Assembly: GCA_965215855.1 (NCBI GenBank)
Contig: CBDCER010000002.1
Span: 324,367-388,366 of the forward strand
Direction: 5' to 3'
Origin: Aggregatilineales bacterium
GTDB taxonomy: Bacteria > Chloroflexota > Anaerolineae > Aggregatilineales > J027
Length of the DNA: 64,000 nt
Part shown: piece by piece, positions 28,776-56,989 of the stretch
Layout: each line of letters opens with the position of its first letter
Numbering within the stretch: the stretch's first letter is position 1
Translations under genes and position numbers: made by a program
Notes under the pieces: generated by a model
The model's input: only the letters and a program-made list of their open reading frames with translations
Told to the model about the DNA's origin: nothing
Databases searched by the model: none

Positions 28776-30062
28776 TCATTCGCCCAGTTCAGTCAGCATC
28801 GTGTCCAGTTGGGGAATGTAGTCTTCTAACAGCAAGGCTTTGAAGCGAGCACGAGTATAAGCAATTTCCTTGCGGATAATGTCTATATCATCGGCTTCGG
28901 TACGTTTAAGTTGAATCGTATGAATTCTTATCAGCGATTCAGCAGCTTGCTTCAGTGTATAAGCATCCTGCAACTCGCCAGCCATCGTCAACGCCTGTCG
29001 GATGCGTTCGGTGGCAGCAGTGGCATCACCATTTCGCAGCAAAACCAACTGTCCTAATGTGATCTGCGACACGGCAAAGTTGCGGCGACGTCCCAGGCGA
29101 GAGAACATCTCACTGCTGAGACGGACATGTTCCTCGGCAGCATCAAATTTGCTCAGACGTCCTTCCAAACGCCCCAAATCATGATAAACGACCGCCAGCT
29201 CGGCTGTAGATCGTAGTGGCAACAGATCTTCCACCGCATCATTCAGACGACGTTCAGCCTCGGCCAGAAGACGCTTTTTCTCAACTTTATTAGGAGCGGA
29301 TTGGGCACGCACCTGATCAGCATAGGCCATCTGTCGTGACACCTGGGCACGCAAAGCCCACAGCCCCATCGTTTCGCAGGTCTGGAAGGCATCGTCTAAC
29401 AGCGTCGCGGCCCGTTCCAAATCGTTCTGGTGAATCAATGCCCCCGCCAAATCAACCGAAACACGGGTTCGCGTTTCAACAGCCCCCGAACTCAACGCCA
29501 CCAATACACGTTCAAACTGGGGGATGGCTGCCGCGAATTCACCACGACTGAGATAGGCACGCCCCATTTCATAGACGGCTGTGGCTTCAAGATCTACCGG
29601 ACCATCGCCATCGAGTAAGGACAATGCTTGCTCATAGCTGATTATGGCAGCTTCCATCTGACCACGGGCCAATAAATGCTGCCCATAGGCCAACAACGCA
29701 TGAATAAAATCGACCCGCAATTCATCCCGATTGGCGGCATAGAATTCGAGCGCCTGCCGAAACAGCCCCTCAGCCTCGTGTCGCATTCCACCTACTTCAT
29801 CCAACGTAGCTGCCATCTCGATGACAACCTTGGCATAGTGCGGGGTATGTTCATCGAGACGATAGTAGAGGCTTTCCAAATATTCCAAAAGTTCTTGAGC
29901 AAGCCCAGCCTCGCGCATCATTGATGCATGGCGCAGAATCAAATCCGCGACCTTCAGCGGATCAACAGTGCTGACGGGGCGCAGTTGTCGTCGGACAATG
30001 GCTCGGATGTTATTCAAGGTGGCCTGTTGTTCGGTGGTAAACAAAGTTGGAGTGTCCGCCAT
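28776..30062 (-). CDS. stand-alone TPR-repeat protein coupled to the STAND NTPase
   Basis: 428 aa, all alpha-helical with TPR_12-like units (e.g. YEMGRAYLSRGEFAAAIPQFERVL, YHDLGRLEGRLSKFDAAEEHV). Its ATG overlaps the upstream stop (TGATG, 30060-30064). Confidence 0.8.
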   Translation of the reverse strand: MADTPTLFTTEQQATLNNIRAIVRRQLRPVSTVDPLKVADLILRHASMMREAGLAQELLEYLESLYYRLDEHTPHYAKVVIEMAATLDEVGGMRHEAEGLFRQALEFYAANRDELRVDFIHALLAYGQHLLARGQMEAAIISYEQALSLLDGDGPVDLEATAVYEMGRAYLSRGEFAAAIPQFERVLVALSSGAVETRTRVSVDLAGALIHQNDLERAATLLDDAFQTCETMGLWALRAQVSRQMAYADQVRAQSAPNKVEKKRLLAEAERRLNDAVEDLLPLRSTAELAVVYHDLGRLEGRLSKFDAAEEHVRLSSEMFSRLGRRRNFAVSQITLGQLVLLRNGDATAATERIRQALTMAGELQDAYTLKQAAESLIRIHTIQLKRTEADDIDIIRKEIAYTRARFKALLLEDYIPQLDTMLTELGE

Positions 30063-32218
30063 CAGGGAGTTATCCTTAGCATATACTCAATCAGGGATTG
30101 GTCGATTTCATCCTGTTCTAAATCGCTCAGGGACAGGGTTTGACGCAAGAAATAGCGGATAGCCGCCGGAATATGATACAGTCGTCCGACACGGCCCAGT
30201 AATCCACGTTGCACCAACACACGCAACTGATCCTGTGTCGATTCGCCACCGATCACCACTGCCATTTCACGAGTAAAGCTATCTGGCAACCCTTTCAAAC
30301 GCCGCACTAAATTGAGCGCGTCTTCGGGCAATGTCTCCAGTTGGTCGCGCATATAAATATCATAGGCATCAGCCACGTCGCCAGTTAATTCCGCCAGGTC
30401 AGTCAATGTGGTGGACAATCCCTGGCGGCGCACCATCTGGGTCCCGGCATGGATCAACCAGGGCATTGCACCAGTATGTTCCACAAAAGCTGCCACTGCA
30501 TCATCATCAGGAAATTCGGATTGCAAATCATAATCGGCAATGAGTTGCAACGCCAGCCGTTCAGCCTCATCAGGCAATAACGTTTCCACCGTATTTTCTT
30601 CCGTGCCGCTGGTGTAGGTGATGGGCTGCACTGGACCGTAGGCCGTCAACAAGAAGCGTGTGCCACCAATGTTATCCAGGCGCGACACAAAATCGGCCAA
30701 CTCCCCAATCTCCAATGGATCGCCCCAAGCATCAACCTGATCCAACACCACCAACACCTGCCGTTCGCGCAGAATATCGCGCAGTGTGGCCCAATTGGTA
30801 TCCGCTGGCAGTTCCAACAAAGCCAGCAATTGCTCCACCACATCTTCCGACTTGGTGCGGTCGCTGACATTCATCCACAACACGCCATCAGGATAGCGCC
30901 AACCAAAGCGGGCTGCATATTCCGCCGCCAGCCAGCTTTTACCCGCACCACCCGACCCATAAATCGCGATTTGCCGGAAACTGGTTGAGGCGATTTCCTG
31001 GCTGAGTTCACTGAGCGGGGCACGTTGTCCAATAAAATCGGCATACTGTGGCACATTTCGCATGGGTGGCAGGCCAGGATCAATCAAAGAACGGCTGGCC
31101 CGCATAGTTTCAGGTGGAAAATCCAGGCGTAGGTTGTCTAATTCAGGCTTAAACCACAATTGATAGCACGCGACGTCGTCGGGGAATGTTTCCCGCAAAG
31201 CAGACGTAGCGGCATCAAACGCATCGCGCACGCTTTGTTGAGTGGCGATCCCACCATAGAAATGACGGGCGAAATACGCTGCACCACTAGCCGACGGTTG
31301 TTTGCTGGTTCCGATGAGTGCTTTAACCACTGTTTCCTCTAACAAAAAGTGGGCAGTTGGCTCACTGATGGGACTATCCATCACAACCAACTGCACGGCG
31401 CTATCGCGGAACAAATTGATAAAGGGTTGTGGGTAAAGCGGCGCTTCATGGCCCCATTCATCCTCCAAGATAAATACATCGTTCGCGCTGTGGCACACCA
31501 AATGCACGATAGGATATTCATTGCCCGCTGCCAGCGTATTCACCAGATGATCTGCTATGGGTGGATTTAGGCGGGTCAGGGCCAGTGGTACGCCTTGAGC
31601 ATGGGCAACTGCCGCCGCCAACTTTTGCCAGCCCTGAAGACCATCTAGCGCCATCTGGGGTGGAGATTCACCACCGTTACTGGCATAGGGCGCAGCAACA
31701 ACAGCCAATATTCCCAGGTAGCGACGTAGGTCGTAGGGAATGATATGGCGCATATCGTAAGGCACAACCACCCGTCCCTGCGCCACTTCGACTGGTACAT
31801 TGGAGAACGTGCTGGAAGCCGATACCACATCAGGCGTCCGGCCTGCCCACAACGCCACCAACTTCGACAGATTAAGCGTATACCGCTCATTACTGCTCAG
31901 GTCAACCCAATCCAACGTCTCCAGCGCAGGCATTACCGGAGCAAAGCGAGATACTACTGGCAAGATGATCTGATCGTTATCGCGGGCGAAATTCACCGCT
32001 TGCTGCACAACTGAAGATCCCATTGCATCAGGTGAGATCACCACCAAAACATAAGCTGCTTCTTCCAGCCCGGCCCTAGTAGCAGCATCACGGTCCGCAC
32101 CCGTGGGGATATGTTTTTCATCGAACCAGATATTCAGACCCGCTGCTTCCAAATCTTTGACCAGGCGACGAACAAAGCCTAAATCTTCGCGGGCATAACT
32201 GACAAACACATGCGACAT
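30062..32218 (-). CDS. TIR / CHAT-like / P-loop STAND NTPase multidomain protein
   Basis: 718 aa. The TIR-like N-terminus is VFVSYAREDLGFVRRLVKDLEAAGLNIWFDE. The middle region fits the CHAT pattern (IVHLVCHS, FILEDE, LVVMDSPIS, FARHFYGGI). Walker A is IYGSGGAGKSW and Walker B is VLVVLDQVD, followed by a helical C-terminal tail. Confidence 0.75.
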   Translation of the reverse strand: MSHVFVSYAREDLGFVRRLVKDLEAAGLNIWFDEKHIPTGADRDAATRAGLEEAAYVLVVISPDAMGSSVVQQAVNFARDNDQIILPVVSRFAPVMPALETLDWVDLSSNERYTLNLSKLVALWAGRTPDVVSASSTFSNVPVEVAQGRVVVPYDMRHIIPYDLRRYLGILAVVAAPYASNGGESPPQMALDGLQGWQKLAAAVAHAQGVPLALTRLNPPIADHLVNTLAAGNEYPIVHLVCHSANDVFILEDEWGHEAPLYPQPFINLFRDSAVQLVVMDSPISEPTAHFLLEETVVKALIGTSKQPSASGAAYFARHFYGGIATQQSVRDAFDAATSALRETFPDDVACYQLWFKPELDNLRLDFPPETMRASRSLIDPGLPPMRNVPQYADFIGQRAPLSELSQEIASTSFRQIAIYGSGGAGKSWLAAEYAARFGWRYPDGVLWMNVSDRTKSEDVVEQLLALLELPADTNWATLRDILRERQVLVVLDQVDAWGDPLEIGELADFVSRLDNIGGTRFLLTAYGPVQPITYTSGTEENTVETLLPDEAERLALQLIADYDLQSEFPDDDAVAAFVEHTGAMPWLIHAGTQMVRRQGLSTTLTDLAELTGDVADAYDIYMRDQLETLPEDALNLVRRLKGLPDSFTREMAVVIGGESTQDQLRVLVQRGLLGRVGRLYHIPAAIRYFLRQTLSLSDLEQDEIDQSLIEYMLRITP

Positions 32219-39751: not shown

Positions 39752-40186
39752 TTATTCCGGCTTTACAACAGGACTGTCTTGGCGTGTCGGCGCAAGTTCA
39801 AAACGCAAGCGCACCGCTCTCCAACTGATGACATCGCCCGCGGACAGTGCCGTTGGCCCCGCTACTTGTACGCTATTAACACGAACACCGCCATTCTGTA
39901 CATGCAGCCACCAAAACCCATCTTGCCAGGCGACTTTCATCGGTTCGGTTGTCTCGTTAAGGGTCAAAGTGGTCACAGAGGATAGCGCGAAGATATGCCC
40001 AGCTTCGATCTCGTGGGTTTCACTTTCCAACACAATCAGGCGTCCGGTCGGGGGTTGTTCGGCCATTGCCGCCGCCCACTGAAAATCGCGCCACAGCATA
40101 TAGCCCACTACCCCGACGAATATCAGCAAGCAGCCACTCGCGGCCAGCCGCAACACCAGAATCCCAATTTCGGCGCTCAAATCCAC
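39752..40186 (-). CDS. membrane-anchored FHA-like domain protein
   Basis: 144 aa with an N-terminal TM helix. The C-terminal part shows an FHA-like pattern (GRLIVLE ..., TLNETTEP ..., NGGVRVNSVQVAGPTALSAGDVISWRAVRLRFE). Confidence 0.5.
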   Translation of the reverse strand: MDLSAEIGILVLRLAASGCLLIFVGVVGYMLWRDFQWAAAMAEQPPTGRLIVLESETHEIEAGHIFALSSVTTLTLNETTEPMKVAWQDGFWWLHVQNGGVRVNSVQVAGPTALSAGDVISWRAVRLRFELAPTRQDSPVVKPE

Positions 40187-40279
40187 CTCATTTCGGACGT
40201 GCCAACCTCCACCCTGATACTATACCAGAATTCCGTAAGAAACCCGACGATTGCCCGCCAGCTATGCTACAATGAGCGC

Positions 40280-41887
40280 ATGATTATCTTACCGGATTTC
40301 CGTATTCACCAACGCGACTATTTGCTGAAAATCTCGCGGGCCATCACCGCCCAGCTTGATTTGGAGGTGGTGCTGCGTATGGTTCTCGAAGCCTCAGTGT
40401 CGATGCTCGGTGGCGAAGTTGGTCTGATTGCGCTGCGTGATCCCGAAGGGCACCTGGGTGTACAGGCCGTGTTGGGCGTTGACCCCGATCAAGCAGAGAT
40501 ATTCGAGCCATTGCTGGACCTAGTCAACGAGGAAGTTGAGGAAACCGAATCTGATTCGAGTGACATTCAGCTGCGAATGCGCCTGATCTCGCGCAAGTTG
40601 GAACTGAATTTACGACAAATGGTCTCGCTGCCGATGCGGATTTCGGGCGAAATGTTGGGCATCATCTTCGTCTTCCGGCCTTATCCGGGCAACCCGACCG
40701 CTGACGATCTTCGCATTTTGCAGAGTTTTGGCGACCAGGCGGCCATTGCTGTTCATAATGCCGGGCTATATCAGGCGACGATTGCCGAGAAACAACGGCT
40801 GGCGACCATTTTGGATGCTAGCGCGGATGGCATCGCTATTCTCGATGCGAATTTGCGGGTCATGCGGATTAATGCGGTTTTGTCCAGGATGACGGGCTGG
40901 CAACCAGAGTATGCACTGGGCCGTGAACACGCCGATGTTATCCGCTGGGCCGACCCGCCACCAGGCTATACACTGGAAACGGCCATTGCTAAAAACTGGC
41001 CGCTGGATAGCACTGTTGAATCCGAAAACCGCTCGACCTCCCCACCCCACACCTTCCATGTCGAGGGCGAATTGGAGCGCCTGGATGGCCTGAATTTGAG
41101 TGTGGAGATCAAATATGCGCCGGTCTTTTTCGAGGACGGCAGTTTGCGGAACATCATCGCCAACGTGCGCGACATCACCCGTTTCCGCGAGGCCGAGGAT
41201 CTGAAAAACACGTTCATCTCGGTGGTTTCGCACGAACTCAAGACGCCCGTTGCGCTGATTAAGGGCTATGCCAGCACACTGCGGCGCGATGATACACAAT
41301 GGGATGCCGAGACGGTACAACGTAGCCTGACAGTTATTGAAGAAGAGGCGGATCGTCTGACCGAACTTATTGACAACCTGCTGATGGCGTCGCGGATTCA
41401 AGTCGAGGGGATGTTGGACCTACATCTCCTGGATGTGGCGTTGGATCAGATTGCGGCGCGAGCAGTTAGTCGTTTTGAACCACAGACACAACATCATGCG
41501 TTCGCATTGGATTTTGAAGTTGATTTCCCCATCATCGTCGGTGATGAGAAACGCCTGCGGCATGTGATCGACAACTTGGTCTCGAATGCCATCAAGTATT
41601 CCCCGAATGGCGGCACGATTACGATTGGCGGACGCGCTTCTGAAGGACAGGTGCAGGTCTTTGTGCGCGATGAGGGCATTGGGCTATCGCCGGCAGATGC
41701 CGAGCTTATCTTCGACCGCTTCTATCGAGCTGATAATGCGGTGAAACACGGCGCACCAGGAACGGGGCTTGGTTTATATCTGGTACGTGCTATTATCGAA
41801 GCGCACGGCGGACACATTTGGGCCACGCCTCATAAAGGGCAATCCGGCACAACCTTTACCTTTACCCTGCCGCGCTTGCAGCAATAG
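40280..41887 (+). CDS. cytoplasmic GAF-PAS sensor histidine kinase
   Basis: I use the ATG at 40280. The 95-codon 5' extension in the ORF track overlaps the divergent gene. The H-box is FISVVSHELKTPV. ATPase boxes are NAIKYSPNGG, DEGIGL and GTGLGLYLV. No TM segment is present. Confidence 0.9.
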   Translation: MIILPDFRIHQRDYLLKISRAITAQLDLEVVLRMVLEASVSMLGGEVGLIALRDPEGHLGVQAVLGVDPDQAEIFEPLLDLVNEEVEETESDSSDIQLRMRLISRKLELNLRQMVSLPMRISGEMLGIIFVFRPYPGNPTADDLRILQSFGDQAAIAVHNAGLYQATIAEKQRLATILDASADGIAILDANLRVMRINAVLSRMTGWQPEYALGREHADVIRWADPPPGYTLETAIAKNWPLDSTVESENRSTSPPHTFHVEGELERLDGLNLSVEIKYAPVFFEDGSLRNIIANVRDITRFREAEDLKNTFISVVSHELKTPVALIKGYASTLRRDDTQWDAETVQRSLTVIEEEADRLTELIDNLLMASRIQVEGMLDLHLLDVALDQIAARAVSRFEPQTQHHAFALDFEVDFPIIVGDEKRLRHVIDNLVSNAIKYSPNGGTITIGGRASEGQVQVFVRDEGIGLSPADAELIFDRFYRADNAVKHGAPGTGLGLYLVRAIIEAHGGHIWATPHKGQSGTTFTFTLPRLQQ

Positions 41888-41902: not shown

Positions 41903-43234
41903 ATGTCATCACAATCCAGGCAAATGCTTCTTGCCTGTCCCAACTGTGGCAACCAATCGCAGGCCACAGTGCAGCAAATCGTCGATGTGGGCCAAGATCA
42001 ATCGGCCAAATACCGTTTTTTGACTGGGCAGGTCAATAATTTCCGCTGCCCACAATGCCAATATCCCATTAGCATCAGCACGACTCTAGCCTATCATGAC
42101 CCCGAACAAGAACTTCTGCTCATCTATGTGCCGATGGAACTCAATATGGGGCACGATGAGCAGGAACGTATGATTGGGCAACTAACACGCACAATCACCG
42201 AAGACCTGCCCATGGAACAACGCAAAGGCTACTTGCTCAATCCACGTCGTAGCCTGACACTAAAAGGGATGCAGGACACAGTTTTCGATGCCGAGCGCCA
42301 CAATATCACACTAATTGATAAACTGTTGCGGGCCACTCCCGAGGAATTGGAGGAGACGGTGGCGGAACAGAATGATATATTCGACGAACAGTTCTTCGTG
42401 GGCCTGATCGCGGATATGGAACTGGCGCAGGCACTTGGCAGAGAAGAATTTGCCGGACAAATGGAGGGCTTACGCGACATCCTCATCGAACAAAGTAGCT
42501 ATGGCCGCGAACTTATTGCCAACATCCAGAGCCAGGAAGCAACTCGCGAGCAGGTGGTTACTGACCTCAACAACTTGGGACAGCAAGTCACACTTGATGA
42601 TTTGATTGATTTAGCAGTCTCCTATGAAAGCGATGAGGACAAGTTGTTGGCGTTTGTGCGGCTGGTGCGCCCAGCGATGGACTATAACTTCTTCCAACGC
42701 ATGACCGAGCGCGTGGAGACATCTAGCTCTAAGAAAGAGCGGCGTAGGACACGTCGGGTGCGGGATGTGTTGCTTGAAATGACACAAGCATTCGACGCCC
42801 AGGCCCAGGCGCTCATCGTGGCAGCTTTGCAGCAAATCATCAACAGTTCCGATTTGGAACAGGCCGTTCTGCAAAGTCTGTCAATTATCGACAACAATTT
42901 TATTGCAGTGCTAACGGCCAATATCGACGAAGCCCGCAAGCGTGGCGACGATGAATTGTTGCAGCGACTGGAACAGGTGCAGGCCATCATTGAACGTATA
43001 GCAAGCGAAAGTAACCGGCCCGAAGTTCAACTGATTAATGATTTACTGCAACTAGAGGACCCACTCGAAATGCGGTTGATGCTGATTGATCGCGCTCCTG
43101 AATTTGGCCCAACATTACTGCAATACCTGGATGTGTTGGTCGAGCAGGTTCAGCAACAGGGCGGCAATCCGGCTTTGCAACAACGGTTACTGGAAATTCG
43201 TGACGAGGCCGAACAAGTCCTTAATGGTAGTTGA
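41903..43234 (+). CDS. CpXC-type zinc-ribbon protein with long helical C-terminus
   Basis: 443 aa with CPNCGN ... CPQCQ (two CxxC pairs), then an acidic helical region. Starts 15 nt after the kinase stop and has an AGAGGAAA RBS. Confidence 0.6.
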   Translation: MSSQSRQMLLACPNCGNQSQATVQQIVDVGQDQSAKYRFLTGQVNNFRCPQCQYPISISTTLAYHDPEQELLLIYVPMELNMGHDEQERMIGQLTRTITEDLPMEQRKGYLLNPRRSLTLKGMQDTVFDAERHNITLIDKLLRATPEELEETVAEQNDIFDEQFFVGLIADMELAQALGREEFAGQMEGLRDILIEQSSYGRELIANIQSQEATREQVVTDLNNLGQQVTLDDLIDLAVSYESDEDKLLAFVRLVRPAMDYNFFQRMTERVETSSSKKERRRTRRVRDVLLEMTQAFDAQAQALIVAALQQIINSSDLEQAVLQSLSIIDNNFIAVLTANIDEARKRGDDELLQRLEQVQAIIERIASESNRPEVQLINDLLQLEDPLEMRLMLIDRAPEFGPTLLQYLDVLVEQVQQQGGNPALQQRLLEIRDEAEQVLNGS

Positions 43235-44642
43235 GCAACGCCGTCCGGGCAATGTGGGCCGCATCGTCTGGCATGTCAGCATCCTGTACAACCACCACGA
43301 CCACCAGTGATCCACCATTCGGCACGTCAACAAACCCCAAAAACCAACTCACGAGCGCCGCTGGCTTCCCAGCATAAGCGGCGCTGCTATATCCATAAAT
43401 CGGCATCTCCACAATATGGTCGCTGGTGAATTCCAGGGCTGTTCGCAATTGCTGGGCTACATCGGGCGAAAAGAAACGGGTAGATTGATCGGGAATGTCG
43501 AAAGATTGCCATTCGCGCTCGCCCGGTTGCCGGTAAGCATCGGCCATGTATAGCGATGGGGCACGGCCATCATTTGCTATCGCGGCAGCTATTCGCGCCA
43601 TATGCAGGGGTGTCACTGTCAATTGTCCCTGACCGATGACTTCTATCCACGTTTGCTGTTGCAGGTCTGGACGTTGATCGAGGGGAACTGGCGTCGCACC
43701 AGCTCCGGTGTCCATCCGATAGAGAGGCACGGGTTCCAGTAATCCAAATTGCATGAGTAGTGTCTGATAATCCCGGGGCTGTTGCAAGGCAGCAATGAAG
43801 GGCGCGGGGCAACCATAGGCAAATGCTTCGATGAGTTGGATTGGCTCTAGATCGGGCAGAGAAAACAGACACGTTATTCGCTCAAATTCTGGTCCCAGTT
43901 CAGGTAATGATATGACCTGTACTCCGTCTGATAATTGATTTTCTAACGAGTCTCCAGCTTCTAACATTGCGGCCAGCCAGATAATCTGCATGGTTCCACC
44001 AGGCTGGTATTGCCCACGCCGGGCACGGTTGAGCAAAGGCGAGGCGTCGGCACGACCCTGCTCCTCAAGTGTGGTAAATGCGAGCCAGTTCAAATCAAGC
44101 ATGTTGGGATCAAGTTCAGGATGGCTGACCATCGCCATCACTTCACCAGAGGGCACAAGCACAACCACGGCTGCACCATCTTTTCCCTCAAAACTCGTCG
44201 TCAGGTGTTGTTGCAAATCCAGATCAATCGTGGTTCGCAGGTCATAGCCCGGCTGCGGACGATTGAGCAGCTCATCCCATTGGGCCTGCCGCGCATCTTG
44301 CCCATCTACTTGACCAGTCAGCACATCGTCAAAAGCACGTTCCAGGCCATCGGCTCCATATTGGTGGCTGTGATAACCAACTGCGCCCGCCACATGGTCG
44401 TAAGGATAGAGGCGGCGCAGATATTGAGTGGCAGTGTAGGGGCTGCTGACAGCCAGCGCCAGGCCGTGGCGATCCAGGATCAACCCGCGTGGCGATCCCT
44501 GCACCAATCGAATGCGGCGCGGGTTATCATCACGAGTCATTAAATCATCATGTTGAAACAGGATCCAATAGGTGCTACTGGTGGCTACCAGTGCGAAGCC
44601 GAAGACAATCGCCAGCATTAAATTACGAAGTTCGCGAGTCAT
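43221..44642 (-). CDS. class B penicillin-binding-protein homologue (transpeptidase motifs substituted)
   Basis: 473 aa with an N-terminal TM anchor. The bPBP fold pattern is present (GAAVVVLVPSGEVMAMVSHPELDPN, IGQGQLTVTPLHMARIAAAIANDG). However SxxK reads GTMQ, SxN reads GCP and KTG reads KPA. Confidence 0.75.
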   Translation of the reverse strand: MTRELRNLMLAIVFGFALVATSSTYWILFQHDDLMTRDDNPRRIRLVQGSPRGLILDRHGLALAVSSPYTATQYLRRLYPYDHVAGAVGYHSHQYGADGLERAFDDVLTGQVDGQDARQAQWDELLNRPQPGYDLRTTIDLDLQQHLTTSFEGKDGAAVVVLVPSGEVMAMVSHPELDPNMLDLNWLAFTTLEEQGRADASPLLNRARRGQYQPGGTMQIIWLAAMLEAGDSLENQLSDGVQVISLPELGPEFERITCLFSLPDLEPIQLIEAFAYGCPAPFIAALQQPRDYQTLLMQFGLLEPVPLYRMDTGAGATPVPLDQRPDLQQQTWIEVIGQGQLTVTPLHMARIAAAIANDGRAPSLYMADAYRQPGEREWQSFDIPDQSTRFFSPDVAQQLRTALEFTSDHIVEMPIYGYSSAAYAGKPAALVSWFLGFVDVPNGGSLVVVVVVQDADMPDDAAHIARTALLNYH

Positions 44643-45915
44643 GGCTGCTGATAATCAACAATAAGCCAACGGCAATAAAACTGGTCAACAGGGAAGAGCC
44701 ACCATAGCTGACAAAAGGCAATGTCACACCAGTCAGAGGCCACAGCCGCAATGTGCCCCCCATGATCAAGAGGCTCTGCGTCGCCAACATCAGGCTCAAC
44801 CCCGCTGCTAAGAATGCGGCGAAAGGGCGCGGTTGGTTCAATATGGCGATCCGCAGGCCGCGTACAATAATCAGTGCCAACGCCATCAGCAAACCCAACA
44901 CGCCAATCAGTCCCCACTCCTCGGCAATGGCGGCAAACACAAAATCGGAATGGGCCACTGGAATAAAAGTGGGGATACCCTGGCCGATGCCAGCACCAGT
45001 GAGGCCGCCAGCCGCCACTGCCATTAAGCTTTGCACAATTTGAAAAGCGCGGCCCTCGGCGTCGGCCCAGGGATTGAGCCATACATCAACACGCAGTGCC
45101 ACAACATCGAAGGCCAGATAGCTCGCCAGCGTCGCCAGCACCAACAATACACCGCCCCCCACCAACAACAGCCATTGTCCGCTGGCGACATACAACATCA
45201 AGATAAACACGGCAAAGAAAATCGAGGCTGTGCCCAGATCGCGTTGCCAGATCAAAATGACAATGCTCAATCCGAACATGGGCAGGGTTGGGATCAGAAA
45301 TCGTAGTGAGGGCATCACTAGGGAACCTAGCTTGATATTTTCTTGGCGGAGTGTCTGCCAGTGTCGCGCACAATAATTCGCCAGGAATACCACCAGCAGG
45401 ATTTTGAGCAACTCTGACGGTTGATAGTAGATCACACCGCCCCCCAACCATAAACGCGGCCCAAAACCCGACGGGTTGACCCCCCAACGTATGGTGGTCG
45501 CCAGCATCACAATGCCGCCCCATAACCATACCGACTGATAACGTCGCAGCCAGTCTAAACTTAATGGCAAATAAAGGAGGCTGACTACCGCCATCGTGCT
45601 GATGACCAGCCAGCCAGTCTGTCGATCTGCAAATGTTGGGGCCAACCGGTCGATGATATTCAGCCCCCATCCTACCAGCAACATCATGGCAGGCAGGATA
45701 TACAAATCGCGCTGAGGCAACCGCCGGTTGAGTGCAACATGCAACAACACCGCACACAATATCCAGATTCCCACCGGCCATAAATCCCACAGGGAACGGT
45801 CTTGCACCTGAATCAAATTCACCTGGTTAATAGCAACAAACACGCCTGCCACCATCAGCAGCAGGCATTCGCGTGTTCTTATGATCGAGGGCAATGAATC
45901 GGGTAAAGGCTGCAC
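44623..45915 (-). CDS. FtsW/RodA/SpoVE (SEDS) family peptidoglycan polymerase
   Basis: 430 aa and polytopic. Motifs: PSELLKILLVVFLANY, RDLGTASIFF, AHSDFVFAAIAEEWGLIG, PFVSYGGSS. Confidence 0.9.
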   Translation of the reverse strand: MQPLPDSLPSIIRTRECLLLMVAGVFVAINQVNLIQVQDRSLWDLWPVGIWILCAVLLHVALNRRLPQRDLYILPAMMLLVGWGLNIIDRLAPTFADRQTGWLVISTMAVVSLLYLPLSLDWLRRYQSVWLWGGIVMLATTIRWGVNPSGFGPRLWLGGGVIYYQPSELLKILLVVFLANYCARHWQTLRQENIKLGSLVMPSLRFLIPTLPMFGLSIVILIWQRDLGTASIFFAVFILMLYVASGQWLLLVGGGVLLVLATLASYLAFDVVALRVDVWLNPWADAEGRAFQIVQSLMAVAAGGLTGAGIGQGIPTFIPVAHSDFVFAAIAEEWGLIGVLGLLMALALIIVRGLRIAILNQPRPFAAFLAAGLSLMLATQSLLIMGGTLRLWPLTGVTLPFVSYGGSSLLTSFIAVGLLLIISSHDSRTS

Positions 45916-45926
45916 GCGCCGAATAA

Positions 45927-46793
45927 TCAGTCCAACATACTTTGTAGGAACAGACGCATTTTCTCCCGCCGTTCATCCGAAATGAGATTCGGGTCCGTAG
46001 TCAATGTGCCTTTCAGCGCACTGTGGGCCGGAGTCGGTTCGGTCAATGCGGCGATTTTCGGAATCGCGCCAGTAATGACACGCTGAATCAATTCAAGATT
46101 TTCGGCAAAAGCCGCCATCACCTCACCCACACTTACTTCACTTTCATACCAGACATCATAATCGGTGACGACAGCCATCACGGCATAACTAATCTCGGCT
46201 TCGCGGGCCAGGAATGCTTCGGGCGAGGTCGTCATGCCAATAATATCCATGCCCCACTGACGAAAGAGGTTGCTCTCAGCTTTGGTACTAAAGCGCGGTC
46301 CTTCACACGTGATGAAATTGCCCTGGCGATGCACCGTGCCGCCTTGCTCATCAATAGTATCGGCCAGCACCCCGCGCAATTGGTTACAAAATGGCTCGGC
46401 GACGCCGACATGAGCCACCAGCCCTTGCCCAAAGAACGAGTAGGAGCGTAACCCCTTGGTGAAATCAACCAGTTGATCGGGCACAACAATATGGCCGGGC
46501 GCATAATCTTCGCGCAAGGAGCCACATGCGCTGACTGCCATGATGTATTGCACGCCCAAAGATTTCAGGGCGTAGATGTTGGCACGATAGGGAACTTCGC
46601 TGGGCGTTAGCATATGGCCGCGCCCATGCCGGGGGATAAATGCCACGCGTTGTTCACCAATGGTAACCGTAATGACATTATCGCTGGGTGGGCCGAACGG
46701 TGTATGAATAACGTGTTCCTGTTTATCGGTCAATGCCTCCATCTGATAGAGGCCAGTGCCGCCAATGATCCCGATGGTACTATCTGTAGTCAT
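45927..46793 (-). CDS. mtnP: S-methyl-5'-thioadenosine phosphorylase
   Basis: Begins MTTDSTIGIIGGTGLY and contains FIPRHGRGH and GMTTSPEA. The internal ATG at 46793 has a GAGGA RBS and is preferred over 46871. Confidence 0.9.
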   Translation of the reverse strand: MTTDSTIGIIGGTGLYQMEALTDKQEHVIHTPFGPPSDNVITVTIGEQRVAFIPRHGRGHMLTPSEVPYRANIYALKSLGVQYIMAVSACGSLREDYAPGHIVVPDQLVDFTKGLRSYSFFGQGLVAHVGVAEPFCNQLRGVLADTIDEQGGTVHRQGNFITCEGPRFSTKAESNLFRQWGMDIIGMTTSPEAFLAREAEISYAVMAVVTDYDVWYESEVSVGEVMAAFAENLELIQRVITGAIPKIAALTEPTPAHSALKGTLTTDPNLISDERREKMRLFLQSMLD

Positions 46794-46928
46794 AGTAATC
46801 CTCAAATTTCCTATCAGCCGTTGCAAGTATAGCAAAAGGGGAACTGCTTGCAACTGATGTTTGCAGTTCAACGCATCTCAGATTAGGATTAACGGGAAAA
46901 TACTCGCAATTATTAGGAAGGTAAACCG

Positions 46929-48764
46929 ATGTCAACCCCTTATGATGGCAAGGTTGCATTGTGGCATTGGAAAGGCTCGTCCGTCAGCGAAGACACCATC
47001 GAAGACCTGGCCCGCACCATTCGGCAGTGGTCTCCCCACGTTAAACAGATATGGGTTAAGACAACGGATGGCACCGATTGGATGGGGCGTTTTGACTCCG
47101 ATAACCCGCTGGCGATCACTGGCCCGGCGGCCATCGCACGTTGGGCACAGGTGTTAGAGGCCAATGGCCTCGAGCTTCATGCTTGGTGTGTGCCAAAAGG
47201 CCAGGACGTGGTAGCCGAGGCGGATCTTATCATCGAAACTTGCAATGTGCCCGGCGTTCGCAGCATGATTCTCGATATTGAGCCTTATCAGGGATTTTGG
47301 AGCGGTGGGCGCGAGAATATCCGGCCCTTTATGACACGCTTGCGACGGGGTGTTGGTGGGCGATTTCATATTGGGATGAGCGTTGATCCACGCCCGCACC
47401 ACTACAACCGCATTTTTCCCGAAGAATGGCGGCCTTTCGTCAACAGTATCCACCCACAATGTTACTGGGTCTCGTTCGACCGTCCTTTTGACGAAGTCTT
47501 AGACGAAGCCTATCAAGTCTGGGGGCGCTATGGGTTGCCGATTTATCCGGCGCTGCAAGGTAATGCCCAGCCCAGTGATATGACACAGGCCCGTGATTAC
47601 AGCATCAACTTCCATAGCGCAGACGGTGTAAGTTGGTGGCGCTTTGGCGTCATTGGTCCCAGCCAATTCACGGCCATTAACCACCCCATCGGCGATGTGG
47701 ATCCGCCTGGGGATGACGACGGGCCACCCGCCGGGGGGCACTATGGGGCCGAAATCGTTGTAACACCAAATGATCCGGGGTTCCGGGCGGGCACTCACAC
47801 AGGCGAACACCCTGACGACTTGCTGCGGACATTTCGGGGAACATGGGGCTGGGATGTTAAGTATAAAGACACCCGCGCCGATACCAGCACCATCTGGACG
47901 CTGTGGGATCCCAATCTGACGGCAAGCGGTTGGTACGAGGTATCCACGTTTGTTCCAGCTCGGCACGCGACCACCAGCAATGCCCGCTACAAACTGCACG
48001 GCGTTCAGGGAATGCAACGCGAACTACAAATCAAAATCGCGCAATCAGAATATTATAATTTGTGGGTTCCGTTGGGCGTTTTCCAGTTCGATGCCAATAA
48101 TGCGCGGGCTGGTATCGTCTTCTTGAATGACTTGACCTATGAAGATGATCGAGAAATTGCCATTGATGCCATCCGCTATCGTCAGATCATTGGACGTGTT
48201 CCCACTTCAGAATTCCTGGCGGACGGCTATGATCCTCCCATTGGCACGCGCATGGAGCGCCAGGAGGCGAAAGTCTGGCCCGGCCATTGGTTCGATGCAA
48301 CAGGCTATGGTGTGCGCTATTTTCGGGGAACGCCACAGGAAGCCTTTCACACCGGCGCAGACCTGAACCTGAATCGGCCCTATTGGGATGCCGATGCCCG
48401 CAGTCCGGTCTATGCCATGGCATCTGGTGTGGTAACCTTCGCCGGACGGCTGGCAGGCTGGGGCAAAGTGGTGATTATTCGCCATGATCCTCTGGTATCT
48501 ACGGGGCAGGTGATGATGGGCCGCTATGCTCATGTGGAGAATGTGCGCGTCAAAGTGGGAGATCGTGTGCAGCGCGGCCAGCAAGTTGCCAGTGTCGGCA
48601 ATGCCGAGGGTGTCTTCCCATACCATCTGCATGTGGATTTGAGTCCCACGACTGTCCTAGAACGCGCTCCCTGGGATTGGCCGAAGCTCGACCTGAATCG
48701 CCTGCATCAACACTACGTTGACCCACGCAAATTCATTGAAGATAATCGCCCACTATCCCGATAG
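46929..48764 (+). CDS. multidomain cell-wall hydrolase: N-terminal glycoside-hydrolase-like domain, central beta-rich domain, C-terminal M23 peptidase
   Basis: 611 aa. The M23 motifs HTGADLN and PYHLHVDL lie in the last ~170 aa. No N-terminal signal peptide or TM segment is visible. Confidence 0.75.
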   Translation: MSTPYDGKVALWHWKGSSVSEDTIEDLARTIRQWSPHVKQIWVKTTDGTDWMGRFDSDNPLAITGPAAIARWAQVLEANGLELHAWCVPKGQDVVAEADLIIETCNVPGVRSMILDIEPYQGFWSGGRENIRPFMTRLRRGVGGRFHIGMSVDPRPHHYNRIFPEEWRPFVNSIHPQCYWVSFDRPFDEVLDEAYQVWGRYGLPIYPALQGNAQPSDMTQARDYSINFHSADGVSWWRFGVIGPSQFTAINHPIGDVDPPGDDDGPPAGGHYGAEIVVTPNDPGFRAGTHTGEHPDDLLRTFRGTWGWDVKYKDTRADTSTIWTLWDPNLTASGWYEVSTFVPARHATTSNARYKLHGVQGMQRELQIKIAQSEYYNLWVPLGVFQFDANNARAGIVFLNDLTYEDDREIAIDAIRYRQIIGRVPTSEFLADGYDPPIGTRMERQEAKVWPGHWFDATGYGVRYFRGTPQEAFHTGADLNLNRPYWDADARSPVYAMASGVVTFAGRLAGWGKVVIIRHDPLVSTGQVMMGRYAHVENVRVKVGDRVQRGQQVASVGNAEGVFPYHLHVDLSPTTVLERAPWDWPKLDLNRLHQHYVDPRKFIEDNRPLSR

Positions 48765-54280: not shown

Positions 54281-55639
54281 CTATTGCCCAAACGGTGTTG
54301 ACGTGGGTGGGAATTGATATGCCTGTGTCGGGGGAATATCCGGGTCTGGGTTAAGACCAATATACGCCCGCCATTGACGCTCCAACTCAATAAATGGCAC
54401 GCCCGTCACCTGTTCCAATGCATCATCCAACACAACATTGGAACTGACCAATTCAATAACCTGACGATGTGTGTCCAGCCCGCCATATGTGCCAACCAGC
54501 CAGTTGATAAACGATGCGCCCATCTCATAGCCCAGATGTGTGCAGCCATCCGACGCTGGCGTGCCGACCATACCACTGGGACCAGACCCTTGCAGTGTAG
54601 CCAAATCCTCACCCAGTGCGGCCAATCGTTGCAGGCGTTGGTCCACCGGCCCCATCTCCAATTCAAAGAAGGTCGCCTCGCCCTCAATCCACCAGGCTGT
54701 GGCACGCACACCATAATCAAACTGATAAAGATGGGCCACTTCATGCGTGGCTACCGAAGCCGCAAACCGCATCTGCCATTCCAAATCACGCGGTTCATTC
54801 CAGATGCAGTCCTGTCGAATCTCCTCAATCTCCAGTCCACGCACGCGCAGCACCGCCGAATAGGTTTCGTTGCTAGCCTGGCCGGTTGTACGCGGATTGA
54901 TCTGTCCTCCGGCCTGAAATTCGCCCATCGAGTCACCGGGTGGGAAGATTACGACGGTCGGCTTGAACGACAACCCCCCACCAAAGCCCAGCGCAAACTT
55001 CTCCCGCAAATGAGCAAACGCCGTCACGACGACTTCGCCCATTTCCTCTGGAAAATCGAACCAATAAACGATGACATCCTCACTTTCGGCCCGGAACCAG
55101 TCACGGGTGGCGTCAATGTACATCACATTCACCGGCTCAGTCTCAACCAGCCCTTCTTCACCATAGGCCACACGCCAGACAACATCCATTGGCATCCAGG
55201 GGGCCAGACCACGTGCCTCATAAGGAATGGCCTGCCACACACCATTTTCGGGGTCGATATTGGTCGCTCGTACCCGCCCTTGCGACCCACCAGCAAAACG
55301 ATAGACTAGATTTATAGATACAACCTCAGCGTCTTCGGGCGGCGTGATGGTGGCCGTGAATTCCAATCCCAACGGGTAGTGTGTCACGTAGGTAAAATCG
55401 GTGAACTGAAACCCGTCGATTTCTTGGTCATCAAAATGAATGGAATCATCGGTCATACTCAGCGTTTCGAGCGTAAACGCAAAATCATCATCCAACGGCA
55501 AGTAGGTTGGCGTTGGCACAAAATTTTCTTGAAATACACCATTGCGAATGGTCGGCACAATGGTACTGGCGAATACTGCCGAGGCCAATAACATCAATAC
55601 CAGGGTTGTGCTGATTATCAGATAAAATCGTTTTGTCAT
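54281..55639 (-). CDS. secreted HExxH metallopeptidase-like protein
   Basis: The internal ATG at 55639 (AAAGGTG RBS) gives MTKRFYLIISTTLVLMLLASAVFAS, a signal peptide. VATHEVAHLYQ is a zinc-protease-type HExxH. The ORF-track extension to 55852 is Arg/Cys-rich and overlaps the divergent gene. Confidence 0.6.
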   Translation of the reverse strand: MTKRFYLIISTTLVLMLLASAVFASTIVPTIRNGVFQENFVPTPTYLPLDDDFAFTLETLSMTDDSIHFDDQEIDGFQFTDFTYVTHYPLGLEFTATITPPEDAEVVSINLVYRFAGGSQGRVRATNIDPENGVWQAIPYEARGLAPWMPMDVVWRVAYGEEGLVETEPVNVMYIDATRDWFRAESEDVIVYWFDFPEEMGEVVVTAFAHLREKFALGFGGGLSFKPTVVIFPPGDSMGEFQAGGQINPRTTGQASNETYSAVLRVRGLEIEEIRQDCIWNEPRDLEWQMRFAASVATHEVAHLYQFDYGVRATAWWIEGEATFFELEMGPVDQRLQRLAALGEDLATLQGSGPSGMVGTPASDGCTHLGYEMGASFINWLVGTYGGLDTHRQVIELVSSNVVLDDALEQVTGVPFIELERQWRAYIGLNPDPDIPPTQAYQFPPTSTPFGQ

Positions 55640-55675
55640 GTAAGCACCTTTAGGATTACAACGAGGACACATTCC

Positions 55676-56989
55676 GTGTCGATTGTAGCGCAATTTCAGC
55701 GAATTGTTTTCTCTGCTTTGATTACTACTGCACTGACGCTGGCGTTCATTCCAGCCCAGGCGCAGGAGACACCGCCAACGGAGACAGGAGTCCAACTCTG
55801 GCATCCGCATACAGGCGAACGACAGGCGGCGCTCGAAGCGCTGGTTGAGCAATTCAATGCTGAAAATGAATGGGGCATCATAGTGACGCCAGCCAGCTTC
55901 GAGAATCCAGGGTTGCTTTATGATCAGATCATCCTACAACTGACTGGCGCAATGGCATTGCCGCATCTGGCAATGATCTGGCCGCATGAAGCGGCACTGT
56001 TTGATCTGAGCAATGCGGTACTCGACCTAGAGCCATATATCAACGATGCTGAGACCGGTTTCACAGACGAGGATTGGGACGATTTTCTGCCTGAATGGGA
56101 AGCACGCACCCGCAATCCTTTTACTGGCAAAGTGCTAGGCTGGTCGGCGCGAACCTTCACCCCCATCATGGCTGTCAATCGGGCAGCACTGGCCGAACTC
56201 GGCTTCGATACACCGCCGCAAACACAGGCAGAATTGTTGGAGATGGCCTGCGCGTTCCAGGGATGGTCAGCAGGCAAGTTCGGTGTGGCGCATGGTTTCC
56301 TAATTCCGACCGATGCTGAAGTGCTGTTTGGATTAGGTGGCAATCCATATGATGATAGTCCCTCGCCTCAATTCACACTCAGCCTGCTGGAGCCAACGCT
56401 ACAAACGTTGATTAGGGCTATTCAGGAAGGCTGTGCCAGCATCGTAGCAAACTCAACCGAAGCGATTGACAAATTCGCTGCCGGGCAAACCTTGTTCTAT
56501 TTCGGCAGTTCATCCAGCCTGCCGGTATTGCGGGACAATATTGCACTCAACTATGCCGAGCCGTTTGCATGGGGTGTCTATTCTCTGCCCACCGATGCAC
56601 CACCACTGGTCTTTGGACCAATTATCACCATCTTCGATCATGATGCTGAGAGCAATCTGGCCGCGTGGCATTTTTTACAATGGTTCACCAGCCCGGAAAT
56701 CAACGCTGGCTGGGTTGCCGCCACCGGCAGCCTGCCCGTGCGTGCCCCAGCCACCGAATCCCTGGATTTTCCGCAACAACAGCAAGCCTGGGAATTGTTG
56801 GAGCGGCCAATGACTGCCATTCCGGCTATCGCAGGCTATGATGTCATCCGGCTGGAAATACAATTTGCGCTCGAACGCCTGCTGAGTGGCACAACCACGC
56901 TTGAAGACGAGTTGCCTGCGCTGGAAACGTTGATTAACCAGATTTTGCAGGATTTCGCTCCACTGCCCGAAACCCAACCAGAGGATTAG
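55676..56989 (+). CDS. extracellular solute-binding protein (ABC family 1, sugar-type), orphan
   Basis: 437 aa with a GTG start and GAGGA at 55663-55667. The signal peptide ends AQAQE. No permease or ATPase genes are adjacent. Confidence 0.75.
   Translation: MSIVAQFQRIVFSALITTALTLAFIPAQAQETPPTETGVQLWHPHTGERQAALEALVEQFNAENEWGIIVTPASFENPGLLYDQIILQLTGAMALPHLAMIWPHEAALFDLSNAVLDLEPYINDAETGFTDEDWDDFLPEWEARTRNPFTGKVLGWSARTFTPIMAVNRAALAELGFDTPPQTQAELLEMACAFQGWSAGKFGVAHGFLIPTDAEVLFGLGGNPYDDSPSPQFTLSLLEPTLQTLIRAIQEGCASIVANSTEAIDKFAAGQTLFYFGSSSSLPVLRDNIALNYAEPFAWGVYSLPTDAPPLVFGPIITIFDHDAESNLAAWHFLQWFTSPEINAGWVAATGSLPVRAPATESLDFPQQQQAWELLERPMTAIPAIAGYDVIRLEIQFALERLLSGTTTLEDELPALETLINQILQDFAPLPETQPED

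Follow-up and report, generated by a model that had tools for sequence, protein, structure and literature searches.

Pairs of a SEDS polymerase and a class B PBP (bPBP) are the core wall-building machines of bacteria and a main target of beta-lactams. The idea that bPBPs do two separable jobs, cross-linking and SEDS activation, is based on point mutants from a small number of model organisms. In the RodA–PBP2 and FtsW–FtsI synthases (T. thermophilus 6pl5, E. coli 8tj3 and P. aeruginosa 8bh1), the genes of a SEDS protein and a single-pass bPBP form a pair, as they do in the locus described here. A SEDS polymerase requires its cognate bPBP (10.1101/358663). Ser-to-Ala mutants of B. subtilis PBP2B and C. 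difficile SpoVD (S311A), which lack transpeptidase activity, still support their SEDS while another enzyme cross-links (PMC12713402). In M. tuberculosis, RodA and PbpA (Rv0016c) belong to the operon fhaA-fhaB-pstP-rodA-pbpA-pknA-pknB (PMC11898655). M. tuberculosis PbpA, which beta-lactams acylate (titles of PDB entries 3upn, 3upo and 3upp), has the motifs S-T-F-K, S-C-N and K-T-G.

The Chloroflexota locus analysed here lies in a 64-kb stretch of DNA (the window). Its gene order, SEDS then PBP, is that of the M. tuberculosis operon, and FhaA and FhaB are encoded upstream in Chloroflexota relatives. Unlike M. tuberculosis PbpA, the Chloroflexota protein, which we call PBP*, is without all three motifs (Table 1).

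Table 1. Features of the SEDS–PBP* locus, in window coordinates
Feature	Position	Strand	Remarks
PBP*, predicted catalytically dead PbpA-type class B PBP, 473 aa	43221..44642	-	ATG start; from ORF list, Pfam, AF2 and structure match
PBP* domains			TM helix, residues 2-28; pedestal (PBP_dimer_2), 52-120; transpeptidase-like domain, 156-459
G216-T-M-Q219	43986..43997	-	S-x-x-K column; has lost the nucleophile Ser as well as the general-base Lys
G277-C-P279	43806..43814	-	S-x-N column; clade consensus G/A-C-P
Y418-S-S420	43383..43391	-	True K-T-G column; clade consensus H-x-[AGS]
KPA, residues 426-428	43359..43367	-	Not homologous to KTG; column misplaced in the sequence-only reading
SEDS (FtsW/RodA-family) glycan polymerase, 430 aa	44623..45915	-	GTG start; from Pfam and motifs
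SEDS stop/PBP* start overlap, 20 nt	44623..44642	-	Translational coupling
MTAP (S-methyl-5'-thioadenosine phosphorylase)	45927..46871	-	11 nt upstream of the SEDS gene
FhaB-like TM protein, 144 aa	39752..40186	-	Homologous to FhaB of related clusters; no recognisable FHA S-x-x-H segment
Golvesin_C + M23 peptidase	46929..48764	+	HxxxD and HxH by eye; divergent from MTAP
CpXC zinc-ribbon protein	41903..43234	+	Convergent; overlaps the PBP* 3' end by 14 nt

A PbpA-type fold without the transpeptidase motifs

PBP* carries a single N-terminal TM anchor (an AF2 helix; hydrophobic stretch LMLAIVFGFALVATSSTYWIL), followed by domains that Pfam assigns to PBP_dimer_2 (PF21922; E 2e-9, 37.9 bits against a cutoff of 27) and Transpeptidase (PF00905; E 8e-16, 58.5 bits against 22.1). 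The AF2 model has a pLDDT of 94.3 and a pTM of 0.92, and its top structural match is M. tuberculosis PbpA (Foldseek 3un7, E 2.7e-28, TM 0.74/0.80). This protein is the closest match in both sequence and structure (3lo7/3un7) and has the short PBP_dimer_2 pedestal subclass in common with PBP*. With its TM anchor, pedestal and penicilloyl-serine transferase fold, PBP* is structurally a class B PBP of the PbpA subclass, and the claim of the sequence-only reading that the bPBP architecture is kept is borne out by Pfam, fold and structural match alike. Its scores lie below the curated NCBIfam equivalog cutoffs for PBP2/MrdA, FtsI and SpoVD (TIGR03423, 138.5 versus 455; NF011685, 34.4 versus 737; TIGR02214, 39 versus 688). 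The pedestal signature RG-I-DR-G-LA (R52, G53, I55, D57, G60, L63 and A64) is invariant across the clade and aligns with residues 44-83 of E. coli PBP2, the L61 position included. The TM helix and the pedestal are intact, and so is the hinge region (RG-I-DR-G-LA / R-I-R-L-V) through which bPBPs contact and activate SEDS.

The active site is a different matter. A phmmer alignment to M. tuberculosis PbpA (3lo7/3un7) places GTMQ on S-T-F-K and GCP on S-C-N, and MAFFT alignments with active relatives reproduce both columns, which are those named in the sequence-only reading. For the third motif that reading had pointed to KPA, which is the wrong column: the G-K-T-G-T-A-E of active relatives aligns to G417-Y-S-S-A-A-Y423, so that K-T-G corresponds to Y418-S419-S420. 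Since K-T-G is absent from the corrected column too, the statement that all three motifs are replaced stands. It also survives a search for Ser-x-x-Lys elsewhere in the domain: the motif is absent from the whole of PBP*, and there is no alternative S..K column common to the clade. Measured against catalytic class B PBPs, the window protein lacks S-x-x-K, S-x-N and the K-T/S-G of strand beta3 alike. Without the nucleophilic Ser, the SxxK Lys, the SxN Ser/Asn and the KTG Lys, PBP*, as judged from its sequence, cannot form the acyl-enzyme required for D,D-transpeptidation or beta-lactam binding.

It is very improbable that PBP* is still a D,D-transpeptidase whose residues have been misplaced by the alignments. 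A serine does occupy the nucleophile column in 27 of 147 clade members, but none pairs it with the Lys, and these sequences have lost SxN and KTG as well. In the window protein this position is Gly and there are only two Lys in 473 residues (154 and 426), and three independent alignment methods concur on the columns.

An old clade under purifying selection

All three motifs are absent from 147 of the 150 closest 50%-identity representatives, a recurrence far greater than chance would give, and the loss is all-or-none. Motif-less proteins make up about 105 of 120 word-index matches, and the motifs are missing at all Chloroflexota genome loci (L001-L056). The substitutions recur in hundreds of independent assemblies and are not, as the sequence-only reading had considered, peculiar to one. 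The intact ORF, the high-confidence fold, the number of assemblies and an omega (dN/dS) of about 0.2 rule out both an error of assembly or sequencing and a pseudogene in decay. In an NJ tree, 141 of 142 dead sequences fall into one clade free of active members, the sister group of which is the active PbpA type; the remaining sequence, P0366, groups with active sister proteins in this tree, which carries no support values. On this evidence, the dead PBPs of Anaerolineae-type Chloroflexota form an old and near-monophyletic clade that lost the three motifs together.

The clade has acquired a consensus of its own (YQPG-x-x-x-Q, G/A-C-P and G-H-x-x), while the framing motifs YxPG, GQG and WFxG are kept. 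Near-invariant residues lie at the old active-site segments (C278 in 144, P279 in 133 and Q213 in 132 of 147 sequences); H418 (95/147) and Q219 (90/147) are common but variable, the window protein having Tyr at 418. The omega values, 0.11-0.40 for PBP* and 0.09-0.29 for SEDS, show that the PBP* gene is under purifying selection, with the whole protein evolving at about twice the rate of active PBP2 controls. By domain, the median omega is 0.217 for the pedestal and 0.208 for the dead transpeptidase-like domain. The head is as constrained as the pedestal and carries new near-invariant residues, and it therefore probably still has a function.

What this function might be leads to a rather unlikely alternative, in which the head has been neofunctionalised as a ligand- or PG-binding receptor, or as an enzyme with other chemistry, and mainly senses the state of the wall or of a partner. 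The similar omega of the two domains, the new residues exactly at the former active-site segments within retained framing motifs, and an FHA/histidine-kinase signalling neighbourhood are consistent with such a role. However, no new conserved nucleophile/base pair is evident in the clade. C278 is a Cys in active PbpA too (S-C-N), and conserved C258, with which it is paired, matches a Cys in M. tuberculosis PbpA; the two proteins have this Cys pair around the SxN segment in common. H418, for its part, is not invariant. A receptor-like head would moreover overlap with the role of a non-catalytic partner instead of excluding it.

Coupling to an intact SEDS polymerase

The adjoining gene encodes a protein with the FTSW_RODA_SPOVE domain (PF01098, E 5e-74). 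Its catalytic aspartate, D324 (codon 44944..44946), lies in AHS-D324-FVF and aligns to the H-T-D-F of TtRodA and PaFtsW, and QPSELLK (family motif QPSELxK), QRDLG and SYGGSS are retained. By domain, catalytic Asp and extracellular-loop motifs it classifies as a SEDS polymerase, although it scores below the equivalog cutoffs for FtsW (243 versus 337.5) and RodA (200 versus 336.7). The SEDS catalytic residues and motifs are intact at every related locus examined. The sequence-only reading had recognised the typical SEDS motifs, to which the aligned aspartate can now be added, and its two ORFs and their overlap are as it gave them: the PBP* ATG occupies 44642-44640 and the SEDS TAA 44625-44623.

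In relatives, the junction is a 4-nt overlap or a direct abutment (0 nt), and PBP* overlaps or adjoins a SEDS gene in about 50 loci. At least eight natural single-chain SEDS–PBP* fusions exist; one, P0109, sits in the same type of cluster, and the others are P0119, P0347, P0348, P0369, P0377, P0381 and P0384. Most SEDS–PBP fusions found are motif-less, and one, P0351, is active.

The block conserved in relatives reads FhaA-FhaB-…-MTAP-SEDS-PBP*. FhaA and FhaB genes lie upstream of the SEDS–PBP pair in about 35 related loci, and active sister proteins occur in FhaA-FhaB-SEDS-PBP clusters. At every dead-clade locus the MTAP-SEDS-PBP* block opens with a conserved MTAP gene; in the window the true start of this gene is probably near 46796. 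FhaA was not found in the window, where the sole Fha-type ORF is the diverged FhaB-like gene, displaced about 3 kb from the pair. A homologue of the Golvesin_C + M23 gene flanks FhaA in related loci, and its product is possibly a cluster-associated cell-wall hydrolase. The CpXC zinc-ribbon gene is a recurrent downstream neighbour in related loci.

This neighbourhood could also accommodate a negative regulator or decoy, a PBP* that holds SEDS inactive or competes with an active bPBP until released by FhaA/FhaB-linked phospho-signalling. The cluster is indeed conserved with FHA proteins, and an unpaired, active MecA_N-type bPBP family in the class could be the alternative partner. We nevertheless consider this improbable: covalent SEDS–PBP* fusions make a releasable inhibitor unlikely, and translational coupling implies 1:1 co-production. 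Furthermore, no PP2C or Pkinase Pfam entries were seen in the called genes of the related loci with Pfam annotation (L001-L003, L084 and L085) or among the window neighbours.

A probable non-catalytic partner and its known counterparts

The reading we favour, and regard as probable, is that PBP* is a non-catalytic PbpA-type bPBP that serves as an obligate cognate partner or activator of the adjoining SEDS, while cross-linking would fall to other enzymes. Its TM helix and pedestal would bind SEDS at TM8/9 and ECL4, as in solved RodA–PBP2 complexes, and so provide the scaffold or allosteric activation on which SEDS polymerases depend. Other enzymes would then act in trans to cross-link the glycan strands of the pair. 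The 64-kb window contains no further PBP, GT51 or YkuD signature; candidates in the phylum are MecA_N-type active bPBPs (abundant in Anaerolineales, unpaired and without an adjoining SEDS gene), class A PBPs, and YkuD or VanW L,D-transpeptidases, the VanW type being relatively common in Chloroflexota (PMC10980060). Because the dead head is as constrained as the pedestal, it may retain a role outside catalysis: it could hold or position nascent strands or stem peptides, or serve as a docking site for a partner enzyme or a regulator.

The sequence-only reading had proposed a pseudo-enzyme bPBP retained purely as an allosteric partner, with cross-linking done elsewhere or differently. The omega values, the clade with its near-universal motif loss, the fusions and the intact hinge agree with a conserved, selected and SEDS-coupled pseudo-enzyme; "purely" overstates the case, since the dead domain is under constraint as well and has gained Q213, C278 and P279. 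More tentatively, a principal SEDS wall synthase of Anaerolineae-type Chloroflexota may have handed cross-linking permanently to non-cognate YkuD/VanW L,D-transpeptidases or to an unpaired MecA_N-type bPBP, with the dead domain repurposed as a stem-peptide- or PG-binding or partner-docking module that gates the polymerase. Such a SEDS machine, co-inherited with an MTAP gene, would be blind to beta-lactams by nature and follow a new regulatory logic.

Nature appears to have split the helper role of a bPBP from its enzyme role, and we found no prior literature report of such a natural dead-PBP/SEDS clade. The clade provides independent evolutionary evidence that the two jobs are separable, catalysis having long been dispensed with while the protein was kept, coupled and sometimes fused, and it gives structural and biochemical studies a separation-of-function system that already exists. 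Wall synthesis by SEDS–PBP* is predicted to be intrinsically beta-lactam-insensitive at the bPBP step, and genome surveys or annotation pipelines that rely on the number of "transpeptidase domains" would overestimate how many active cross-linkers Chloroflexota have.

Precedents exist at several distances. The dLytM factors EnvC, NlpD and DipM are homologues of wall enzymes that have lost their catalytic residues and whose role is to activate a different wall enzyme; their fold (M23) is unrelated and the activity concerned is hydrolytic, making this an analogy only. SEDS–PbpA fusions in Coriobacteriales, with FtsW/RodA, PBPA_dimer and TPase in one chain (Microlife 2025, PMC12516126), have the same architecture as P0109, P0347 and others; that survey was built on domain architecture, and active-site loss is not reported there. 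Compared with the M. tuberculosis operon, the Chloroflexota loci have MTAP inserted ahead of SEDS, and PstP and PknA/B are not seen in the annotated loci. The PBP2B and SpoVD mutants embody the mechanism proposed for PBP*, but each carries one substitution made in the laboratory and would otherwise be active, whereas the PBP* clade as a whole represents a natural, ancient loss of all three motifs. Finally, the RodA–PBP2 and FtsW–FtsI synthases share with the window pair the SEDS catalytic Asp and the bPBP hinge/pedestal signature; canonical pairs couple polymerisation and cross-linking in one complex, whereas SEDS–PBP* is predicted to perform polymerisation only.

Fold and active-site columns of PBP*

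PBP*, the window's PbpA-type class B PBP (bPBP), is encoded downstream of an FtsW/RodA-family glycan polymerase (SEDS), the stop codon of which (TAA, 44625–44623) falls 20 nt within the PBP* gene. Both ORFs agree with their description in a sequence-only reading, and the PBP* start codon (ATG, 44642–44640) is backed by homology because the clade consensus likewise starts with MTREL. Pfam recognizes a 'PbpA' pedestal (PBP_dimer_2) followed by a Transpeptidase domain; scores against the NCBIfam models of PBP2/MrdA, FtsI and SpoVD all lie far under the curated cutoffs. By sequence, the nearest protein of solved structure is PbpA of M. tuberculosis (3lo7/3un7; E about 2e-24). AlphaFold2, supplied with a 62-sequence alignment, gave a very confident model (pLDDT 94.3, pTM 0.92), for which Foldseek ranked PbpA structures best (E 3e-28, TM 0.74–0.80), ahead of the PbpA-type proteins from Atopobium and Eggerthella; PBP2 and PBP3 enzymes came next. 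The Pfam domains, the PbpA alignment and the modeled structure therefore agree that PBP* has the full architecture and fold of a bPBP.

In the alignment to PbpA, the S-T-F-K column reads GTMQ in PBP* and the S-C-N column reads GCP. The sequence-only reading had located the third motif at 'KPA', which is the wrong column: the G-K-T-G-T-A-E segment of active relatives aligns to G417-Y-S-S-A-A-Y423, and therefore Y-S-S stands in place of KTG. Despite this shift, its claim that all three transpeptidase motifs are lost is upheld. A Ser-x-x-Lys elsewhere in the domain, which the same reading had named as counter-evidence, was not found: neither PBP* nor the clade as a whole offers an alternative S-x-x-K nucleophile, and the relatives share no S..K column. 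PBP* contains two lysines in total, at positions 154 and 426; Lys426, eight positions downstream of the KTG column, is atypical for the clade. A Cys-His neo-active site formed by C278 and H418 is unlikely, C278 being common to active S-C-N enzymes and position 418 being a tyrosine in PBP*. Judged from these columns, residual catalysis by PBP* is effectively excluded.

Extent and origin of the motif-less clade

A word-indexed search returned 285 homologues; among the best 120, all three motifs are missing from about 105 ('dead' proteins). When 1.84 billion 50%-identity representatives were searched exhaustively with HMMER, 2,227 matches reached E ≤ 1e-30. SxxK is absent in 147 of the 150 best matches (E ≤ 1e-84), and the three that have it also retain SCN and KTG; since the motifs are kept together or absent together, their loss is all-or-none. 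A 22-sequence core alignment was used to scan GTDB species genomes; the representatives returned, which do not include the window's own genome, gave about 55 Chloroflexota loci (labeled Anaerolineae, Anaerolineales, Thermoflexus, Aggregatilineales, Phototrophicaceae, Ardenticatenia or Promineifilaceae), and the PBP is motif-less in every one. The substitutions are thus not confined to this assembly, a point that the sequence-only reading had raised with sequencing error in mind, and the size of the motif-less clade effectively excludes an artefact. Source databases name many of its members 'hypothetical protein' or 'penicillin-binding protein 2'.

The dead-clade consensus reads Y-Q-P-G-[G/S/A/T]-x-x-[Q/E/Y/H] at the SxxK segment, [G/A]-C-P at the SxN column and G-[H/Y/Q]-x-[A/G/S] at the KTG segment. 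In a neighbour-joining tree, which carries no bootstrap or other support values, 141 of 142 dead sequences form one clade with zero active members, and active PbpA-type proteins are its sister group; this topology fits a single ancient motif loss. Inside the clade, P0263 keeps S-C-N, P0316 and P0329 have a lysine in the KTG column and P0337 has one in the SxxK column. These are single remnant or reverted residues, and none of the four proteins has a complete motif set. The dead clade is a conserved pseudo-enzyme lineage within the SEDS–bPBP synthase family.

Proposed role alongside the SEDS polymerase

The SEDS motifs QPSELLK, QRDLG, QSL, EEWG and SYGGSS are kept in all related loci, and Asp324 (AHSDFVF) aligns with the aspartate of H-T-D-F in RodA from T. 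thermophilus and in FtsW from P. aeruginosa, identifying it as the catalytic aspartate. With motifs and catalytic residue preserved, the window's SEDS is intact. Its equivalog score is slightly higher for FtsW than for RodA, both under cutoff. Promoter and terminator scans gave no signal over shuffled expectation.

SEDS polymerases require a cognate bPBP (10.1101/358663), and in B. subtilis and C. difficile Ser→Ala bPBPs still sustain SEDS function, with cross-linking performed by other enzymes (PMC12713402). TM helix, pedestal and hinge are all retained in PBP*, and the R-I-R-L-V of the hinge aligns with R-I-K-L61-V of E. coli PBP2. Given these retained elements, the SEDS requirement and the Ser→Ala precedent, we infer that PBP* is probably an obligate non-catalytic partner or activator of the neighbouring SEDS polymerase, and that the glycan strands made by the pair would be cross-linked in trans.

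Selection was assessed by Nei–Gojobori (NG86) dN/dS on close pairs among the fetched loci. Values were 0.11–0.40 for the dead PBP and 0.09–0.29 for its SEDS. Within the dead clade, median omega was 0.217 for the pedestal/TM part and 0.208 for the transpeptidase domain (ratio 1.09); the active PBP2 controls gave 0.124 and 0.109 (ratio 0.96). The dead PBP thus evolves about twice as fast as active PBP2, and relaxation specific to either domain was not seen. These values reject a pseudogene or relaxed selection, both over the full length of the protein and domain by domain, and the dead head (transpeptidase-like) domain is under retention. Its most conserved positions are still the segments framing the old active site, and in these segments new residues have become fixed (Q213 in 90%, C278 in 98% and P279 in 90% of sequences). 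The proposal of the sequence-only reading, a bPBP kept purely as an allosteric partner, is therefore too narrow: the non-catalytic partnership stands as the favoured interpretation, 'purely' does not, because the head domain is constrained. The same constraint makes it likely that the remodeled cleft serves in binding, positioning or docking; taken as a separate explanation, rival to the partner role or extending it, this has a low probability.

Natural SEDS–PbpA fusions of 776–942 aa also bear on the partner role. At least eight single-chain fusions are motif-less (P0109, P0119, P0347, P0348, P0369, P0377, P0381 and P0384); one, P0351 (L087), is fully active by its motifs. The C-terminus of SEDS and the N-terminus of bPBPs are both cytoplasmic, so that such a fusion is topologically natural. 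The fusions provide strong evidence that SEDS and PBP* function as a single unit even where transpeptidase chemistry is missing, and they count against PBP* being a decoy or inhibitor, which is unlikely.

If PBP* is a non-catalytic partner, other enzymes would supply the cross-links. No other PBP, GT51 or YkuD signature and no further wall-synthesis gene was found within the 64-kb window. Active bPBPs with MecA_N, PBP_dimer and Transpeptidase domains form a large Anaerolineales family without an adjacent SEDS gene. The example in locus L067, flanked by Maf upstream and RsgA downstream, is from a family of more than 3,700 homologues, most of them labeled Anaerolineales. VanW-type L,D-transpeptidases are reported to be relatively common in Chloroflexota (PMC10980060). 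Both types are candidate trans cross-linkers, at class or phylum level only.

A domain-based pan-bacterial survey of SEDS and bPBPs from 2025 noted PBPA_dimer proteins and SEDS–PbpA fusions, not the loss of the active site (PMC12516126). Our full-text searches, with subscription-only papers outside their coverage, found no description of a natural motif-less bPBP paired with SEDS. The question of the 'two jobs of a bPBP' becomes directly testable in a natural system.

Gene neighbourhood and related clusters

Coordinates of the features discussed (window unless another locus is named)
Feature	Location	Position	Strand	Remarks
FhaB-like TM protein	window	39752..40186	-	144 aa; BLASTP E 6e-15 to L001 FhaB
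GAF-PAS histidine kinase	window	39995..41887
CpXC zinc-ribbon protein	window	41903..43234	+	443 aa; convergent, 14-nt overlap with PBP* 3' end
PBP*	window	43221..44642	-	473 aa
SEDS	window	44623..45915	-	430 aa; FTSW_RODA_SPOVE, E 5e-74 (Pfam)
MTAP	window	45927..46871	-	bona fide, TIGR01694 above cutoff; 11 nt upstream of SEDS
Golvesin_C + M23 peptidase	window	46929..48764	+	611 aa; divergent from MTAP
TIR + NB-ARC/STAND protein, then TPR protein	window	28776..32218	-	718 aa; 428 aa
Large ORF	window	21047..23911	+
Large ORF	window	26119..28161	+
Large ORF	window	54281..55852	-
Large ORF	window	59135..60340	-
MecA_N + PBP_dimer + Transpeptidase bPBP	L067	9044..11287	+	747 aa; SVFK/SCN/KTG whole
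P0109, motif-less SEDS–PBP* fusion	L084	8001..10331		inside same FHA-FHA-MTAP cluster

The window carries the block in partly rearranged form: MTAP (S-methyl-5'-thioadenosine phosphorylase), SEDS and PBP* are unbroken, with the M23 peptidase divergent upstream and the CpXC and GAF-PAS histidine kinase genes convergent downstream, as in L001. In about 16 related loci, too, the pair has a CpXC homologue as its convergent neighbour downstream, frequently with a GAF-PAS histidine kinase. FhaA was not detectable in the window. The FhaB-like ORF has no Pfam FHA match and carries an 11-residue deletion that takes out the S-x-x-H phosphothreonine-binding segment of the FHA domain; its product could be another degenerate component, besides PBP*. 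The M23 motifs HxxxD (HTGAD) and HxH (HLH) are whole by eye, and homologues adjoin FhaA in L001, L008 and L018; the peptidase may be a hydrolase partner of the SEDS–PBP* synthase. Elsewhere in the window, the TIR + NB-ARC/STAND and TPR genes look like a putative NLR-type anti-phage defence pair, and the large ORFs (401–680 aa) match no Pfam family at E ≤ 1e-5.

The block conserved in relatives runs FhaA–FhaB–(0–6 kb)–MTAP–SEDS–PBP*, with the pair at its end, often with a convergent CpXC gene downstream of it and an M23 peptidase near FhaA. In all dead-PBP loci (L001–L051, L084) the gene directly upstream of SEDS is MTAP. Active clusters have the order FhaA–FhaB–SEDS–PBP and no MTAP (L052, L055 and L058, from Bacillota and Limnochordia MAGs, and L085, a metagenomic locus). 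MTAP insertion and motif loss are co-inherited. Unlike the terrabacterial/actinobacterial fhaA-fhaB-...-rodA-pbpA cluster (PMC11898655), the annotated related loci hold no phosphatase or kinase genes. The order of that cluster is nevertheless recognisable in the dead-clade cluster, which differs in having MTAP inserted ahead of SEDS.
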